A stretch of DNA of 10,134 bases from Armatimonadia bacterium. GTDB taxonomy: Bacteria; Armatimonadota; Zipacnadia; Zipacnadales; UBA11051. This document shows positions 1 to 10,134 of the stretch, piece after piece. Where the stretch lies: contig JBDKRC010000213.1 in assembly GCA_039683575.1 (NCBI GenBank), positions 1 through 10,134 of the forward strand, written 5' to 3'. Numbering within the stretch: the first letter of the stretch is position 1; every line of letters begins with the position of its first letter. The notes beneath the pieces are model-generated. The model did no database searches. It had not been told where the DNA came from and saw only the letters and a program-made list of their open reading frames with translations. Made by a program: the position numbers and the translations under genes.

Positions 1-1020
1 GATCGGGTGCGGGTGGAATTGACTTCCGACCGCTCAGGCGTGCTGCGGCTGTGCATCGCCTCGCAGCGTTCGGGAGTGGGAGGGACGTTCCGGGTCAGTG
101 TGCAGCCGAAGGCCATGGCTGACGCAGGTATACCCACTTCGCCGGTCACGCCGGCGGAGCCGGATGTGACGCCGGCCGATTTGCGCGTGCCCGCCCCGCC
201 TCGGTTCCAGGGAGCCAAGCTGCTGAACGCGCGGAGCCCCGGCCTCAGCGTCCCAACCCCTCAGCCGCTGCCTGCAACGGTACAGGACCCAGGGGTGTTG
301 AGCAGGACGCTTCACCAGATGAACTACCTCTCTGTCGAGGCTGGCGGGTGGTCGGAAATAGACGAGCGGAACTGGCTATACCCCAAGCCGGGCGATGTGA
401 CCCACAGCTCCCCCCGCTTCTTCTTTGCGGACCCGGATAACCAGTTCTCGGATGCTGATACGGCGAAGAACTACACCATCCCCCTGCAGTGGCAGGGCAA
501 CGTGTTCACCTGCAAGCACCGCAGGGACCTCGACGCGCATGGCAGCTTCGAGATGCTCGATGTCGCCGGTACCGTCAGCCCCGATGGCAGCCGCGTGGAA
601 TGGGTGACGATCCGGGAGTATGTGCAGGAGGCTTACTGGGACGAGAAGGACAAGGAGGCGCTGCTGCGCCATCGCCTGTATCGCAGCATTTCACTGGTGG
701 ACCTGCCCCTGCGCAACCCGTTCTACAATCCTGATACCGGTTCGGGGCCCAGTCACGTCACAATGCAGAACCTGCTGAAAGCGCGGCCGCTGGACCTCAC
801 GCTGAGAAACGGCTTGCACTACGGGTTCAACAATAGTCCTGAAGCGGGCCAACATGTGCTGGACCTGGGTTATCTGGAACAGGACCCAGCAGTCCGCGGG
901 GCACAGTGCATTGACGCCGACAAGATACACAGCGTCGCTTACCGCTCGACGAACTGGGCCTATCCGGACGGCCGCTCGACTGCCAAGCTGAGCTTTGAGC
1001 GGCGCAGTAACGCGCGGTAG
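1..1020 (+). CDS. Hypothetical protein, 5'-truncated: beta-strand-rich domain end, Pro-rich linker, unknown C-terminal domain
   Basis: The frame is open from base 1 (gat cgg gtg...) to TAG at 1018-1020, so the true start probably lies upstream of the window. Pro-rich linkers PTSPVTPAEPDVTP and PTPQPLPATVQDP. No family recognised. Confidence 0.7.
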   Translation, partial: DRVRVELTSDRSGVLRLCIASQRSGVGGTFRVSVQPKAMADAGIPTSPVTPAEPDVTPADLRVPAPPRFQGAKLLNARSPGLSVPTPQPLPATVQDPGVLSRTLHQMNYLSVEAGGWSEIDERNWLYPKPGDVTHSSPRFFFADPDNQFSDADTAKNYTIPLQWQGNVFTCKHRRDLDAHGSFEMLDVAGTVSPDGSRVEWVTIREYVQEAYWDEKDKEALLRHRLYRSISLVDLPLRNPFYNPDTGSGPSHVTMQNLLKARPLDLTLRNGLHYGFNNSPEAGQHVLDLGYLEQDPAVRGAQCIDADKIHSVAYRSTNWAYPDGRSTAKLSFERRSNAR

Positions 1021-1087: not shown

Positions 1088-2017
1088 TTAGTGTACCGTC
1101 GCCTGCAGCACCAGTATGCGGTCGCGGCCATCTTGGCGAGGCTGCCCGCACAGCGCCTGCCAACCGCACAGCAGGATTTGCTCGCTATTGCCCATCCTCA
1201 AGCCAGGGAACTCCAAGATCATGGCCATATCATCAGGTTGGCTCTGGCGCTTCGGGGGCGTAACCATGTCCGTCAGTGGCTTTCCGGCATTCGTCCACGT
1301 TGTCTGCAGCGACAAACTCAGAGTGATGGTTGCATCGGGGTTGATTACAGGCACGATTACAAAGCGGCTCCCGACATCTGTGTAGGTGAATTCTGGAAAT
1401 TCGCTCGGCTTTGGGGCCTCGCCGTTCTCTTTCATCGCGAAGTCCAGTTGAACTGCCTGCCCGCTTTGGGCGGCGACGTGGGGTTCATTCAGGACCGTCG
1501 CACGGCCAGCCGAGAGCAGCGCGTTCAGTTGGGGATTGAATCTTCCGCGCAGAATGGCGATGTTGCCGGGCAAGCGGTATCCGTCCCACGCGACAGCATC
1601 GTCCGCAGTCAGAAGATCAATGATCTTCAGGCCGATATCAACTCTCGGTGTCGTGTCACCGGGGGAAAACGCCCACGCACCGTTGTCTTGCCGCAGGGCC
1701 AGATTATGGCTTCGGGCGATTGTGGCTAGCATCTGATCTACCCGCAGGTCTTTCCAGTTCCAATCCATCACCCGCTTGCCCTCGACTTCCGCGCCAAACA
1801 CGACCTTGCTGTTGGTTGCCTTTGCCACGGCGCGCAGGAAGTCGGCGAGAGGCACGTTGTGGGCCTGAACGTTGAAGGTGCCTGCCCGCGCGCCCGCCGT
1901 AATGGACGGGGGAACCTGACGTTCGGGCTGAGCCCAGACCGCGACGCTCAGGCGCAAGATGCAAAAGCTGGCGAAAGCGACGCCGGATACGAACCTGCGG
2001 CCGAGAAGCGAAGGCAT
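1088..2017 (-). CDS. Compact secretin-like (GspD/PilQ-type) protein: signal peptide, STN/N0-like domain, reduced secretin domain
   Basis: Likely start ATG 2017 (MPSLLGRRFVSGVAFASFCILRLSVAVWA|Q, signal-peptide-like); the ORF track extends to 2074. STN-like segment FNVQAHNVPLADFLRAVAKATN...DQMLATIARSHNL. Secretin-domain motifs RVDIGLKIIDL, LNALLSAGRATVLNEPHVAAQSGQAVQL, FTYTDVGSRFVIVPVINPDATITLSL and EQILLCG. Confidence 0.7.
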   Translation of the reverse strand: MPSLLGRRFVSGVAFASFCILRLSVAVWAQPERQVPPSITAGARAGTFNVQAHNVPLADFLRAVAKATNSKVVFGAEVEGKRVMDWNWKDLRVDQMLATIARSHNLALRQDNGAWAFSPGDTTPRVDIGLKIIDLLTADDAVAWDGYRLPGNIAILRGRFNPQLNALLSAGRATVLNEPHVAAQSGQAVQLDFAMKENGEAPKPSEFPEFTYTDVGSRFVIVPVINPDATITLSLSLQTTWTNAGKPLTDMVTPPKRQSQPDDMAMILEFPGLRMGNSEQILLCGWQALCGQPRQDGRDRILVLQATVH

Positions 2018-2051
2018 GTGAAGACCATCCCGTTGTTGTTGTAGGCTCCCG

Positions 2052-2060
2052 ACTATAACA
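2052..2060 (-). promoter_or_regulatory. Possible extended -10 promoter (TGnTATAGT) for the secretin-like gene
   Basis: The minus strand reads TGTTATAGT about 35 nt upstream of ATG 2017, in an AT-richer patch. No good -35 hexamer. Confidence 0.3.
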
Positions 2061-2093
2061 ATGATCCACAACATCAGTTCCGCGGCGGTCAGG

Positions 2094-4170: not shown

Positions 4171-4267
4171 CACGGCGGCCTCCGGTTTCATTCACTGGGG
4201 CTCGATTTCGCGCCGAGGCGCCGGATTCCCTGCATGATGGCGAATCGACGACGCGTGTTGCTGAGCA

Positions 4268-4495
4268 TTGTCCCGCCCGGCTGGAAGCCGGGCTCTAACA
4301 GCGCAATCTCGCGTGGCGACCGTAGCGGTCGCAAGGATGCCGCTCGTACGACCCAGGGACGGCTGGGTGTCGTTCAGCCTGCTCGGGGGTGGCAACCAGC
4401 CCCTCTCTCCGGGGGGCTATACCGTCACCATCACGGTTGGGGACAAGATTCTCGGCCGCAAGAGTTTCACAATCCGCGGCGGTGCCGTGGGTTAG
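4268..4495 (+). pseudogene. Small ORF or decayed gene remnant ending in a beta-sandwich-like C-terminus
   Basis: The C-terminal part GWVSFSL...PLSPGGYTVTITVGDKILGRKSFTI looks like the end of an Ig-like domain and stops just before a bidirectional terminator. There is no clear start or RBS, and an in-frame TGA sits at 4262. Confidence 0.35.
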
Positions 4496-4511
4496 CGGCG
4501 ATAGCCCTTCA

Positions 4512-4554
4512 CAAAGGCAAAAGCCCCGCCAACAGGCGGGGCTTTTGTTCTTTG
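4512..4554. terminator. Bidirectional Rho-independent terminator
   Basis: CAAAAGCCCCGCC (4518-4530), loop AACA, GGCGGGGCTTTTG (4535-4547): a perfect 13-bp stem with an A-tract on the left and a T-tract on the right, between convergent ORFs. Confidence 0.9.
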
Positions 4555-4564
4555 GTCATACCCA

Positions 4565-4753
4565 CTAATGGCAGGCCATCGCGCCTGACTTCACCATTGG
4601 GCGGATGTCCTCTGCCTTCAGGTCTTTGCCATGCGCTCGCCGCGCATGGTCCTGCACCGTGTTGATCACTTCGTCCTCATTGCTGTCGCATACGTGGAAG
4701 TCACAGGACAGACCTGCGTCCTTGCACGATACGCTGTACATATCCTTGCCCAT
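4565..4753 (-). CDS. DUF1059-like small predicted metal-binding protein
   Basis: 62 aa with the pattern C-x-D-x-G-x2-C-D-F...EDEV...H-A-x3-H-G. Strong RBS AGGAGG 6 nt before the ATG, and the gene is followed by the terminator. Confidence 0.88.
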   Translation of the reverse strand: MGKDMYSVSCKDAGLSCDFHVCDSNEDEVINTVQDHARRAHGKDLKAEDIRPMVKSGAMACH

Positions 4754-4902
4754 CGGCTACCTCCTCATACCCTCCCTCTGTCCTGCGACGGCCCTGATTG
4801 GCGAATGTTCAGGTGCTGCCGCTTGTACGGCTATGGCGAGACAGCATTGGCGCTGCTGCCTGTGGTCAGGCGAATCGTGTAGTGATCTCCGTTCCTCCCT
4901 GA

Positions 4903-4931
4903 TTGGCGTCTGCTCCTGTGCCTGCTATGGT
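4903..4931 (+). promoter_or_regulatory. Putative sigma70 promoter for the membrane-protein pair
   Basis: TTGGCG (4903-4908), 17-nt spacer, TATGGT (4926-4931) with an extended TG at 4923-4924. It lies just upstream of RBS AGGAGG (4942-4947) and ATG 4954. Confidence 0.45.
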
Positions 4932-4953
4932 TACCATGGGCAGGAGGATAGCG

Positions 4954-5430
4954 ATGATCGTCCCGGACCTTATTGGCGCGCTGGCTGTAACCATCATGTA
5001 CACAGTCCTGCTGATTCCGGTACTAGGGCCGGGGCGCACGGGTTGGCCGCAGTTTCTACTCTATTGCCTGCTGCTCTTCCTGATCGTCTGGGCGGGTGCT
5101 GCGTGGTTCCGGCCGCTTGGCCCCACCATTGCCGGCGTGCCCTGGCTGGTGATGCTGGGCCTGGGCGGGATCTTCGCGCTCTATCTGGCGGCGCTGGTGG
5201 ACCTGCCGGTGCGGGGCCCGAGGAGAGTAACCTCGCACCTGACACACCCGCCGACACACCACCACGAGACTGTCCATGACCTGCCTGCATCGCTGACCGG
5301 GCTGCGGGCGGACTCACCGGAAGACACCGTCGCGAATACAGCTCTGATAACCCTTGGCCTACTCGCGTTTATCCTCATCGCGCTGCTGCTGGCTGTGATT
5401 CTCGGCAACTACGCGCTGGTTGGGAGATGA
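4954..5430 (+). CDS. Hypothetical 4-TM membrane protein (paralog 1)
   Basis: ATG 4954 follows AGGAGG. Three hydrophobic helices, a polar His/Pro-rich loop, then a C-terminal helix; motif WP...LLFLIVWAGAAWFRPLGP. Confidence 0.85.
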   Translation: MIVPDLIGALAVTIMYTVLLIPVLGPGRTGWPQFLLYCLLLFLIVWAGAAWFRPLGPTIAGVPWLVMLGLGGIFALYLAALVDLPVRGPRRVTSHLTHPPTHHHETVHDLPASLTGLRADSPEDTVANTALITLGLLAFILIALLLAVILGNYALVGR

Positions 5431-5437
5431 TAGTTAC

Positions 5438-5890
5438 ATGGTCTGGCTTGATGTTGTCGCCTCGCTGATTCTCGCCGGTGTGTTCACAGCGGTGATCATC
5501 TCGGTCTCCGGTCGCCGCCGCGACGATGCCTGGCCCGGAGGACCCTTCTACTTCACGATTCTCTTCCTGGGCATCTGGGCGGTCCGAGTCTGGCTAAATC
5601 CGGTGGTCTGGACGACCTGGGGGTGGCACCTGCTCATGCTGGCTGTCATCGGCCTGATTCTAACCCTGGCGCTGCTGGCCACGACGGCGCCCGGTCGTGC
5701 GGGCCACGGCGGATCTCACCCCAGCCCTGACCCCGACGCGTCAACGTCGCGCGAAGACCTGGTGATGGGTGCCGAGGCCGCCCGCGTGAATGTGGAAGTG
5801 GCCCAGTACTCGTATGGCCTGATGTTCTGGCTACTGGTCATCGCTCTGGTGGGGGCGATCATCGCCGGGATGATCACGCCAGTGCGTTGA
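5438..5890 (+). CDS. Hypothetical 4-TM membrane protein (paralog 2)
   Basis: ATG 5438 follows GGGAGA, 7 nt after the paralog 1 stop. Same layout, with motif WP...ILFLGIWAVRVWLNP and C-terminal GLMFWLLVIALVGAIIAG. Confidence 0.85.
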   Translation: MVWLDVVASLILAGVFTAVIISVSGRRRDDAWPGGPFYFTILFLGIWAVRVWLNPVVWTTWGWHLLMLAVIGLILTLALLATTAPGRAGHGGSHPSPDPDASTSREDLVMGAEAARVNVEVAQYSYGLMFWLLVIALVGAIIAGMITPVR

Positions 5891-8036: not shown

Positions 8037-9230
8037 TCAGGCGTTCAGCATTGCCTCACGCATGATCGCGAGCGCCTCCTGGACCTCCGCTTCGCTCAGG
8101 ATCAGCGGCGGCGCCAGTCGCAGCAACTGGTCGCCTAGCTTGTTCACGATGAGTCCGCGCTCCCGGCAGCCTGCCTCGACCTCGGTCCCCTTCGGCTCGC
8201 TCAGTTCCAGGCCCAACAGCAGGCCGCGCCCGCGCACTCCCGCCACCAGCGGCACTTCGCTCTTCATCGCCAGCAGCCCGTCCTTGACCATCTGGCCCAT
8301 GCGCTTGGCGTTGCCGGGCAGGTCGTCGTCCAGAATGACCGAGATCGCTGCCAGACCAGCCGCACAGGCGAGGTGGTTGCCGCCGAAGGTCGAGGCATGG
8401 TTCCCCGGCTCGAAGGCTGCAGCGACGCTCTCCTTCGCGAGGCAGGCGCCGATGGGGAAGCCGCCGCCGAGGGCCTTGGCGAGAGTGAAGATATCTGGCT
8501 CGATGCCGAACTGTTCGTAGCCCATGAAGGTGCCGGTGCGCCCGAGGCCGGTCTGCACCTCGTCGCAGATCAGCAGGATGCCCTTGTCGTCGCAAAGCTT
8601 GCGGACGCCCTGCAGGTAGCTTTCGCCCGGCACGATGATGCCGCCCTCGGCGATGATGGGCTCGAGCATGACCGCGCAGACGGTGTCATCAACGCGGGCG
8701 GTGAGGGCCTCGAGGTCGTTGTACGGAACATAGTCGAAGCCGCCGGGGAGCGGCGCGAAGGGCTTGTAGTACTTCGGCTGACCGGTTGCGGTGACGGTGG
8801 CGAGTGTGCGGCCGTGGAAGGAGTTCAGCGCGGTGATGATCGTGCGCTGACCGTCGGCGAGATGCAGCCCCGCCCACTTGCGGGCGAGCTTGATGGCTGC
8901 CTCATTGGCCTCGGCGCCGGAATTGCAGAAGAACACGCGGTCGGCGCAGGTGTTGTCGCAAAGCAGCTTGGCGAGCTTGGCCTGTGGCTCGATCTGAAAC
9001 AGGTTCGAGGTGTGCATAATCTGCCCCGCCTGCTCGCAGATGGCCTGCACGACCTTGGGGTGGCAATGCCCGGTGCCGAGAACGGAGATGCCAGCCAGGA
9101 AGTCCAGGTATTCCTTCCCATCGGCATCCCACAGCCGGCAGCCCTGGCCTTTGACGAAGGCAATGGGCAACCGCCCGTAGGTCTTCATGATGTGCTGGTC
9201 GGTAAGTGCGGTGATCTCTGCGTTAGTCAT
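8037..9230 (-). CDS. argD: Acetylornithine aminotransferase (class III PLP enzyme)
   Basis: Motifs YLDFLAGISVLGTGHCHP, FFCNSGAEANEAAIKLAR, SFHGRT, DEVQTG, DIFTLAKALGGG (PLP Lys) and HASTFGGN. It lies downstream of argB. Start ATG 9230 is 6 nt after GGAG; ATG 9242 is an alternative. Confidence 0.95.
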   Translation of the reverse strand: MTNAEITALTDQHIMKTYGRLPIAFVKGQGCRLWDADGKEYLDFLAGISVLGTGHCHPKVVQAICEQAGQIMHTSNLFQIEPQAKLAKLLCDNTCADRVFFCNSGAEANEAAIKLARKWAGLHLADGQRTIITALNSFHGRTLATVTATGQPKYYKPFAPLPGGFDYVPYNDLEALTARVDDTVCAVMLEPIIAEGGIIVPGESYLQGVRKLCDDKGILLICDEVQTGLGRTGTFMGYEQFGIEPDIFTLAKALGGGFPIGACLAKESVAAAFEPGNHASTFGGNHLACAAGLAAISVILDDDLPGNAKRMGQMVKDGLLAMKSEVPLVAGVRGRGLLLGLELSEPKGTEVEAGCRERGLIVNKLGDQLLRLAPPLILSEAEVQEALAIMREAMLNA

Positions 9231-9245
9231 TGGAAACTCCATGTG

Positions 9246-9276
9246 GGGAATCGGGAATTGGGAATAGGGAATCGGG
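9246..9276 (+). repeat. Tandem heptamer array (GGGAATN)x4 + GGG, left arm of the cassette inverted repeat
   Basis: GGGAATC GGGAATT GGGAATA GGGAATC GGG read directly from the sequence. Confidence 0.93.
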
Positions 9277-9286
9277 TTCGGACCTG

Positions 9287-9673
9287 TTACTCCAGCTTGC
9301 GGCTTAGCGATCGGATCAGGGCTTGTAGCATTTGACGGCAGCGGTGAAGGAGTGGGAGGAGGGTTTCTGGATCTACCTCATAGCCAAGCCGCTGGGAAAG
9401 TAGTACCTGAGTTTCGAGTTCGGCTGCAGCGCCGCGGGAGATTTGGAGGAAGCGGATGTAGTCCTTTGTGGTTCCGCGGCCATTTCCCTCCGCGATGTTT
9501 GATGGCACCGACACGGCGGTCCGTCACATCTGGCTAGTGAGGCCAAAACGCTCTTCTCTCGGAAACCCGGCTGTGGTGCTGTAGACAGACTGACAAATAT
9601 CCATGGCCAGATTCCAGACCCCCAGATCCCTGAAATCGTGCACAACCACGGCGTTCTCTTCCGAAGTCTCCAT
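9287..9673 (-). pseudogene. Four helix bundle protein (23S rRNA intervening-sequence protein / Avd-like family) with an internal in-frame TGA
   Basis: ORF-track pieces 9524..9754 and 9287..9514 are in the same frame. Joined, they read METSEE...HDFRDLGVWNLAMDICQSVYSTTAGFPREERFGLTSQM*RTAVSVPSNIAEGNGRGTTKDYIRFLQISRGAAAELETQVLLSQRLGY...LIRSLSRKLE. ATG 9673 follows GGGAGA. TGA 9526-9524 replaces the first R of the family QMRR motif. Confidence 0.9.
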
Positions 9674-9728
9674 GTCTCTCCCCCCCGTTGTTTCTTGTCC
9701 TTCTAACTCGCGAGCATCAACCACCAAA

Positions 9729-9765
9729 CCCCATCCCGATTCCCGATTCCCCATTCCCGATTTTC
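9729..9765 (-). repeat. Tandem heptamer array (GGGAATN on the minus strand), right arm of the cassette inverted repeat
   Basis: The plus strand reads CCCCAT CCCGATT CCCGATT CCCCATT CCCGATT TTC. Confidence 0.93.
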
Positions 9766-9769
9766 GCCG

Positions 9770-10134
9770 TCATCCCCGAATCATCGTTCCAATCCCGGCG
9801 TCGGTAAACAACTCAATCAGCATCGAGTGCGGCAGCCTTCCGTCGATCATGTGGGCGCGCGGCACTCCACCTTCGATGGCCTTCAGGCACGCCTGCAACT
9901 TGGGGATCATGCCCTTGCTGACCTTGCCGTCTTCCACCAGCTTCTCCGCCTGCTCGGGCGTTAGCTCACTGATCAGCGAGTTCTCATCTTCAACATTATC
10001 GAGCAGACCGGGGATATCGCTAAGGACGATCAGCTTTTCCGCGCCGAGGGCCGCGGCTACGGCTCCCGCGGCGGTGTCTGCGTTGATGTTATAGCTCTGG
10101 CCCTCTTCGCCGATGCCGATGGTGGAGATGACTA
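9770..10134 (-). CDS. argB: Acetylglutamate kinase, 3' portion (start lies beyond the window; missing from the ORF track)
   Basis: Manual translation from 10132 gives VISTIGIGEEGQSYNINADTAAGAVAAALGAEKLIVLSDIPGLL...KGMIPKLQACLKAIEGGVPRAHMIDGRLPHSMLIELFTDAGIGTMIRG*, with TGA at 9772-9770. Confidence 0.96.
   Translation of the reverse strand, partial: VISTIGIGEEGQSYNINADTAAGAVAAALGAEKLIVLSDIPGLLDNVEDENSLISELTPEQAEKLVEDGKVSKGMIPKLQACLKAIEGGVPRAHMIDGRLPHSMLIELFTDAGIGTMIRG

Follow-up and report, generated by a model that had tools for sequence, protein, structure and literature searches.

How did a small gene for a four-helix-bundle (4HB) protein come to lie between argB and argD, and what are the mirrored arrays of 7-base repeats that enclose it? 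The question is raised by a stretch of DNA from an Armatimonadia bacterium, the entire 10134-base contig C213 of genome G000 (JBDKRC010000213.1), which we call the window and in which the relevant genes all lie on the minus strand. To our knowledge, the protein family concerned (PF05635/TIGR02436) is very large and has no known function; it has appeared in print mainly in rRNA intervening sequences (IVSs) and as a relative of Avd, a protein of diversity-generating retroelements (DGRs). Heptamer repeats, for their part, occur in excess in many bacteria, and the descriptions of them from Xanthomonas and cyanobacteria name no partner. A literature search, with subscription journals outside its scope, found the combination of a 4HB gene and a heptamer stem for the Coxiella rRNA IVS only, and found heptamer arrays as stand-alone repeats only, with no link to PF05635 outside rRNA.

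Our answer is that the locus belongs to a class of widespread small insertion cassettes of about 480 bp, in which a G-rich heptamer array, a leader, a 4HB gene and a mirror C-rich array follow one another. We favor this reading, taken jointly with the steps of arm pairing and protein binding that are weighed below, with moderate confidence.

Mirrored heptamer arrays enclose a single gene

The longest inverted repeat of the window consists of the two arms around the 4HB gene (9249-9281 against 9730-9762, 33 nt, 88% complementary). The initial annotation had described a match of 26 of 28 positions between the arms, and an ungapped alignment gave the same figure; its coordinates were all correct. 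Using Tandem Repeats Finder (TRF), we found just two period-7 arrays in the 10134 bases, one at 9246-9276 (4.4 copies) and the other at 9734-9762 (4.1 copies). When we searched the window for (GGGAATN)3GGG and allowed up to 2 mismatches, all four matches fell within the two arrays, and 200 dinucleotide-preserving shuffles of the window gave none (0/200). Each heptamer unit keeps a conserved core, and its 7th position is free. The predicted energy of the isolated arm-arm duplex was -51.8 kcal/mol, compared with -28.9 ± 4.2 kcal/mol for shuffled arms, and none of 500 shuffles was as good.

The arms fit closely between the two arg genes. The 3' part of argB (acetylglutamate kinase; 9770..10132, minus strand; PF00696, TIGR00761 with E 1.7e-30), which is truncated by the contig end, reads into a TGA stop at 9772-9770 (minus strand), and the G-rich array follows after 7 nt. 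The upstream arm (9731..9765, minus strand), recovered by TRF and by the inverted-repeat and pattern searches, is G-rich in the mRNA and has about four GGGAATN units. After it comes a 57-nt leader (9674..9730, minus strand) that ends in GGGAGAGAC and, as read from the sequence, carries the Shine-Dalgarno sequence GGGAGAG right before the ATG. The 4HB gene itself (9287..9673, minus strand), defined by translation and family scans, has 128 codons from the ATG at 9673 to the TAA at 9289-9287; the earlier claim that the arms enclose one gene with its own ribosome-binding site (RBS) is upheld by this open reading frame (ORF) and its Shine-Dalgarno sequence. The downstream arm (9246..9281, minus strand; TRF and inverted-repeat search), C-rich in the mRNA and with about 4.4 units that complement those of the upstream arm, begins 5 nt past the 4HB stop, and its TRF heptamer array begins 10 nt past that stop. 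The spacing from the C-rich array to the argD RBS, GGAG at 9240-9237, is 8 nt, and a further 6 nt lead to the argD start codon, ATG at 9230-9228 (RBS and start together 9228..9240, minus strand). Seen on the antisense strand, the downstream array sits 15 nt ahead of the argD start.

The start of argD (acetylornithine aminotransferase; 8037..9230, minus strand; PF00202 with 2.1e-123, TIGR00707 with 499 bits) was read from the sequence and from comparison with relatives. The longest ORF begins at the ATG at 9242, which overlaps the GGAG, but the relatives share a start at MTN..., which corresponds to the ATG at 9230. Automatic annotation could make argD 4 codons too long at this place (ATG 9242 versus 9230).

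The 4HB ORF, with an in-frame TGA codon read through, scored 112.4 bits against PF05635 (cut-off 33.8) and 114.4 bits against TIGR02436 (cut-off 24). The best solved match of its protein is PDB 2GSC (XCC0516 of Xanthomonas campestris; 5 chains, E 1.8e-25), which has been termed a homopentamer (PMC4990558; here and below, this paper, PMC4692102 and PMC10053308 are cited for parts of their text).

The cassette entered the argB-argD junction as one unit

To place the cassette in its evolutionary setting we took argD loci from 29 relatives. The argB gene lies directly upstream of argD in 22 of these 29 loci; in 14 of the 22 adjacent pairs the aligned argB and argD ends are at most 53 nt apart, and in several relatives, including G001 of the same genus, the two genes share an ATGA stop/start overlap. 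A 4HB match was found in none of the 29 loci. The initial annotation had called the unit a self-contained insert, a view that the empty junctions of the relatives confirm, and it had also considered that relatives might all carry the gene at this site, which is not the case. The whole unit was inserted into a formerly overlapping argB-argD junction in the lineage of this species, co-directionally with the arg operon. The nearest empty-site relatives have an ArgD identity of 75-82% and are too diverged to place the insertion ends to the base or to recognize a target-site duplication.

The same junction has received other DNA in the genus. In G002 (locus L005) it holds a 395-nt gene-less insert with hairpins and 14-nt tandem repeats, and in G003 (locus L006) a 90-nt near-perfect palindrome. 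These gene-less inserts indicate that the argB-argD junction is an insertion hotspot, with at least three independent events within a single genus. In addition, in G021 of the same order, a 4HB gene on contig C44 (11704-12015, minus strand) lies directly beside an ArgD-like paralogous aminotransferase gene (10355-11476, minus strand), and is thus another cassette adjoining a class-III aminotransferase gene.

The distribution of the gene in the window's order is patchy: PF05635 occurs in 7 of 17 genomes, in 0 to 7 copies. The 12 cassettes that we inspected in G002 and G003 all have repeat units of their own, and both mirrored arms are visible in 10 of them; in the remaining two the gene is broken, and the inspected downstream stretch fell within the gene. 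Four of the G002 cassettes have both flanks on one G000 contig, and at all four the G000 site has neither the gene nor a heptamer array, which indicates that the arrays come and go with the gene. The idea that arrays are pre-existing landing pads for the gene was accordingly rejected for these 4 checkable sites, where the orthologous G000 sites are array-free. A fifth cassette of G002 lies between a tRNA gene and dnaX and has its orthologue in the cassette on G000 contig C63; the proteins are only 61% identical, although the flanks are well conserved.

It might be proposed that the structure is a feature of the arg operon itself (an attenuator, terminator or operator), a product of chance or slippage, or the remnant of a DGR in which an Avd-like gene has survived. 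The hotspot character of the junction in G002 and G003 fits such a proposal, and PF05635 resembles Avd: the two share a homologous four-helix-bundle fold, and Avd of BPP-1 (4DWL) has been aligned with 2GSC, the best solved match of the window protein (PMC10053308). On the other hand, relatives lack the cassette at argB-argD, the repeat pattern appeared in none of the 200 shuffles, and the same design recurs in unrelated operons of many phyla (see below). An Rfam scan of 9100-9900 gave no match, and no sigma-70-like promoter or terminator was predicted on the strand of the 4HB gene in the region. In contrast to a DGR, no reverse transcriptase and no pair of template and variable repeats stand beside the 4HB gene. 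As had been stated before, no transposase or reverse transcriptase family was found among the 12 window ORFs that were profile-scanned, in which the 4HB ORF matched PF05635 only; the sole RVT_1 match of the genome is on contig C320, not on the window contig. We consider this group of explanations very improbable.

The cassette design is shared across the family

We then scanned for homologues with one genome per species. The scan returned 600 relatives, from which 80 loci from many phyla were kept, 76 of them with usable flanks. In 54 of these 76 loci the arms are mirrored: their inverted-repeat score exceeds the 99th percentile of controls that were displaced or had their partners permuted. 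A period of 7, 14 or 21 was found in the upstream flank of 49 of the 76 loci and in the downstream flank of 50, with a median of 4.3 copies per array (149 arrays). The suggestion that homologous genes carry inverted heptamer flanks is supported by these loci, and the genes on both sides are co-directional in 67 of 73 loci. The fit is snug throughout, since the median distance from the preceding stop to the start of the upstream arm is 4.5 nt, that from the end of the downstream arm to the next start codon is 13 nt, and the whole unit spans a median of 480 nt. An unexpected feature was polarity, with more G than C on the sense strand of the upstream arm in 48 of 50 loci.

The repeat unit varies from locus to locus, and the host operons, in many phyla, are unrelated. 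The three 4HB genes of the present genome all have mirrored repeat arms, with a different unit in each. The accB-accC site of Xanthomonadaceae and Rhodanobacter gave 13 cassettes with the units GGGAAT, GGGATT, GTGATT and GTGAAT, and the opposite arm always bears the matching complement, which amounts to covariation on both sides. The heptamer-armed 4HB cassette is therefore a family-wide design, inserted snugly and in the orientation of the operon, with arms that are complementary and co-vary.

Two paralogous cassettes of G017, L128 (contig C34) and L132 (contig C582), show how the unit may multiply. They are 83% identical at the nucleotide level and share both the gene and the compound build of the arms, in which a CTGGATR array lies outside and a GGGAACG array inside; the inner units number 9 in one copy and 2 in the other. 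They are the most similar protein pair of the set, and were first scored as having unlike units only because TRF picked different layers of the compound arms. The pair indicates that the cassette duplicates as a whole and that its arrays breathe by slippage. The nine-unit copy also has a tandem duplication of the 3' end of the gene together with the inner arm.

The unit of the window is the same as one already described. In Xanthomonas, GGGAATC repeats prefer 4 units, lie on the sense strand at most 50 bp after stop codons, and form 70 to 75 convergent pairs per genome (Rehm et al. 2015, PMC4692102). The likeness to our arrays is close: the unit is the same with a variable last position, the arrays have about 4 units (4.4 and 4.1 in the window), and the G-rich strand lies at most 50 bp after a stop, or antisense upstream of an ORF, with arrays between aligned ORFs and in convergent pairs (PMC4692102); these placement rules all hold for the arrays of the present genome. 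The paper treats the repeats as quadruplex-forming simple repeats, and the words S23 and "intervening" are absent from its main text (PMC4692102). The differences are that here, and in genomes of the Xanthomonadaceae, such arrays are the arms of a 4HB cassette, and that the window comes from a distant phylum.

This likeness suggests another explanation, in which the arrays are G-quadruplex or i-motif regulatory repeats of the Xanthomonas kind and the 4HB gene is an unrelated passenger between two of them. Four GGGAATN units make up a canonical G3N4 quadruplex motif, GGGAATC repeats form G-quadruplexes in vitro, and the preferred number of units and the positions relative to stop codons agree with such a role (PMC4692102). 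When G-quadruplexes were allowed, the predicted energy of the upstream arm alone was -11.5 kcal/mol, compared with -3.7 kcal/mol without them. However, the duplex of the two arms is far more stable than this (-51.8 versus -11.5 kcal/mol). Runs of G3 or C3 are absent from 56 of the 88 cassettes that have a period-7 unit, yet the arrays of these 56 are as long as the others (median 4.5 versus 4.0 copies). The association of the gene with mirrored arms in 54 of 76 loci, with locus-specific units, also speaks against a passenger. We find the quadruplex explanation improbable.

Gene and arrays co-occur at the whole-genome level

The GGGAATN arrays are dispersed through the genome. We found 27 GGGAATN-like blocks and kept 24, the other 3 having weak or different units. 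Two of the 24 are the arms in the window, two form a second inverted pair, and 20 are single. When read in the G-rich orientation, 11 of 20 scored arrays of the GGGAATN family (AATCGGG) follow the end of an ORF (at least 100 codons) at a distance of up to 45 nt; in the C-rich orientation, only 2 do. For the genome as a whole, TRF at a low threshold gave 373 period-7 arrays, which fall into about ten recurrent unit families, and the bias in position behind ORFs extends across all unit families (102 versus 35).

Are the arrays then independent of the gene? The initial annotation had named this as a possibility, and it stands in part. About 22 arrays are set against 3 genes and have no 4HB gene beside them. 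Against independence stands the co-occurrence of the two at the genome level. In the window's order, GGGAATN arrays are present in 4 of 7 PF05635-positive genomes and in none of 10 negative ones, and the unrelated unit GAAAACR likewise gave 4 of 7 versus 0 of 10. The same-genus genome G001, which is 90% complete, has neither a PF05635 gene nor GGGAATN arrays. We also analyzed 41 sampled genomes of the Xanthomonadaceae. The GGGAATN pattern had at least 5 matches in 16 genomes, 15 of which have PF05635, and fewer than 5 in 25 genomes, 7 of which have PF05635. Array-bearing genomes thus make up 15 of the 22 PF05635-positive genomes and 1 of the 19 negative ones. Gene and arrays co-occur at the whole-genome level, and they do so again in two distant lineages.

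A low-copy gene between inverted short repeats, with the repeats also dispersed between genes and often just behind them, is known from repetitive extragenic palindromes (REPs), their REPIN arrangements and the REP-associated tyrosine transposases (RAYTs). In these systems the repeat sequence varies with the gene lineage, and the repeats are largely confined to genomes that bear the gene. The 4HB gene resembles them in lying between inverted repeats that are also dispersed, mostly in gene-bearing genomes. It differs in encoding a small four-helix-bundle protein without a known catalytic motif in place of an HUH/Y1 transposase, in having tandem heptamers and not single palindromes, and in that the arms and the dispersed arrays are not strictly identical in unit.

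It may be, then, that the arrays are primarily binding sites, in DNA or in single strands, for a pentameric 4HB protein that spreads or maintains them in trans. The gene would lie between its own sites as a RAYT lies between REPs, and an RNA stem would be incidental. This explanation overlaps with the one we favor. It draws on the near confinement of arrays to PF05635-positive genomes in the two lineages, and on five array-rich Xanthomonadaceae genomes in which exactly one PF05635 gene each accompanies 120 to 189 matches. The conserved core and free 7th position of the units suit a binding site. Arrays of about 4 to 5 units also recall the closest solved relative, 2GSC, with its 5 chains and its description as a homopentamer (PMC4990558). 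Furthermore, in pairs of cassettes with a protein identity of at least 65%, 42% of 12 pairs share at least 6 of 7 unit letters, compared with 1 to 3% below 55% identity.

Several observations point the other way. The link between gene and arrays is not unit for unit: G053 has 189 GGGAATN matches and its only cassette has arms of the GGGGATA type, G075 and G041 are similar, and in G000, with its 94 GAAAACR matches, no cassette uses this unit. Overall, the similarity of units correlates only weakly with that of the proteins (Spearman 0.09, reached by 19 of 1000 permutations), and such a correlation would be expected from co-inheritance alone. The family has no known catalytic domain, and neither the upstream-G polarity nor the co-orientation with operons is predicted by double-strand binding alone. 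We rate the explanation by binding sites alone as rather unlikely, though clearly less so than the quadruplex or arg-feature explanations.

Some further observations on the dispersed arrays were made. The second GGGAATN inverted pair (G000:C68, 5786-5813 and 6016-6043) is 200 nt apart and lies within a membrane-protein ORF of at least 610 codons without a Pfam match. Its arrays are translated in frame, into ...GGIGNGESGIG... and ...FPIPNSRFP..., and the orthologues of the ORF in G002 and G003 have heptamer-like peptides, GIGIRDSGFG and IPNPESRIP, in the same two variable loops. Throughout G000 (for example at C142:3392-3420, C237:4866-4896 and C192:5247-5271), arrays that belong to different unit families have a common left junction, ACGGC or GAGGC, which also precedes the upstream arm of the window. 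Such arrays are often followed by other repeat modules, namely a GC-rich hairpin around CCCCTTCGGGG and a conserved stretch with GGTTGTCATCCTGAACGAAGTGAAGG, and many are near contig ends.

The 4HB gene of this strain is broken

The in-frame TGA noted above is codon 50 of the 4HB gene (9524..9526, minus strand, read as 9526-9524), recognized from the translation and from variants in sequencing runs. It replaces the Arg of a QxRR motif that is invariant across the three 4HB proteins of this genome. Since argB ends in TGA, this codon is a stop in the genome, and the reading frame of the allele in this strain is broken by a nonsense codon.

Public data on the locus came from four runs of one study (1 DNA, 3 RNA-library), all as assembled contigs. 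The runs were searched with window positions 8900-10134, and none matched half of the sampled words. They contain a sister strain, about 97% identical, with the cassette at the same site. In the sister strain, codon 50 is CGG (Arg), with T>C at 9524 and A>G at 9526 in contigs of the runs X1 (DNA), X3 and X4 (both RNA-library). Contig X2 (9211-9524), which is identical to the window, ends at the third base of the TGA codon, so that the first base of that codon rests on the assembly. Between the two strains, the 4HB gene has 6 synonymous and 5 non-synonymous codon differences, and the covered part of argD has 13 synonymous and 2 non-synonymous ones, which indicates that the 4HB gene is less constrained than argD.

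Do the arms act as an RNA stem or as binding sites?

The initial annotation had proposed that the arms pair in the mRNA, as in rRNA. The link to rRNA IVSs proved real: the IVS of Coxiella burnetii has a 28-bp terminal stem, which RNase III cleaves in vitro, its S23p ORF is preceded by tandem heptamers, and the same source cites Leptospira for ORF-bearing 23S rRNA IVSs (PMC4990558). The IVS and the window cassette have the same protein family (S23p/PF05635) in the loop. They are of similar size (428 to 444 nt for the IVS, about 520 nt for the cassette) and have terminal inverted repeats, a stem of about 28 bp in the IVS and arms of 33 nt with 88% complementarity in the window. Both have tandem heptamers directly upstream of the ORF and lie within a host transcript, with the ORF decaying in some strains (PMC4990558). 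They differ in that the IVS occupies helix 45 of 23S rRNA (PMC4990558), whereas the cassette lies between the protein-coding genes argB and argD and not within an rRNA helix, and in that both arms of the window are built wholly of heptamers. They also differ in that excision by RNase III has been shown in vitro for the IVS (PMC4990558) and is a prediction for the cassette. RNA-library contigs at the present locus bridge one arm.

If the arms pair in the arg transcript, they would form a stem of about 30 bp. This stem would fold the insert aside and bring the argB stop close to the argD ribosome site, and by analogy with the 23S rRNA IVSs that carry the same gene it would be a likely substrate of RNase III. 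We propose that the element is tolerated in an essential operon at little cost because the arms pair. The arms were paired in both the minimum free energy and the centroid folds of a 566-nt transcript segment, and the co-orientation with the operon together with the G/C polarity of the arms points to a strand-specific constraint.

Other results weigh against a role of the stem. The full 566-nt fold was not more stable than shuffles (z -0.59); the duplex of the two arms is the one part that stands out. The downstream arm is crossed by the RNA-library contigs X2 (9211-9524) and X4 (9216-9365), which continue into argD. No joint that skips the cassette was found in the run contigs, which may include DNA and in which the upstream-arm region 9698-9781 is uncovered by the RNA-library contigs. 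Across 50 loci, the arm positions comprise 1334 Watson-Crick pairs and 159 mismatches, of which 41 are G·U, 51 are A·C and 67 are transversions. That G·U is not favored over A·C speaks against wobble-tolerant selection on a stem in the sense RNA, and it agrees with arrays that serve as binding sites; the comparison is a weak one, because tandem arrays can pair in several registers. In older cassettes (C63 and C224) only the core word of each unit is kept and not full complementarity, which is more like a protein-binding site than a stem. Finally, most arrays in the genome are single arms without a pairing partner.

Taking both sides together, we consider it possible, though not quite probable, that the arms pair in the arg transcript, that the insert is made tolerable in this way, and that it is processed by RNase III as are the rRNA IVSs. 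We suggest more tentatively, in analogy to RAYTs and REPINs, that the heptamer arrays are bound by the ring-forming protein and depend on it to spread or to be maintained. The two proposals are mutually compatible.

Other features of the window

Several ORFs of the window have no Pfam match: 1-1020 (plus strand), 1088-2074 (minus strand), and 4234-4665, 4605-5279, 4903-5430 and 5420-5890 (plus strand). A 36-nt direct repeat at 5060 and 5547 (75% identical) lies in this Pfam-less region and suggests that two of these ORFs are paralogous.

Discussion

The locus and the comparisons that it led to tie an orphan 4HB family to the puzzle of heptamer repeats. The gene travels with its mirrored arrays as a compact unit and slips between the genes of essential operons in their orientation.

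What does this mean for the arrays that stand alone? One extension of our reading is that the 4HB protein and the heptamer arrays form a genome-wide two-part system similar to RAYT and REPIN, in which a small ring protein that binds nucleic acids and has no known enzymatic domain would be needed for the arrays to arise, spread or persist behind genes, and would have its own gene kept between two of them. We put this forward as a rather doubtful possibility, bearing in mind that the co-occurrence counts overstate the link, because related genomes are not independent. If it is true, the two-part system would explain why bacterial genomes, as has long been known, have too many 7-base repeats. It would also account for the ORF-bearing rRNA IVSs, as a special case of where the same element lands. 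The cassettes may represent a new kind of transposase-free element, either selfish or domesticated.

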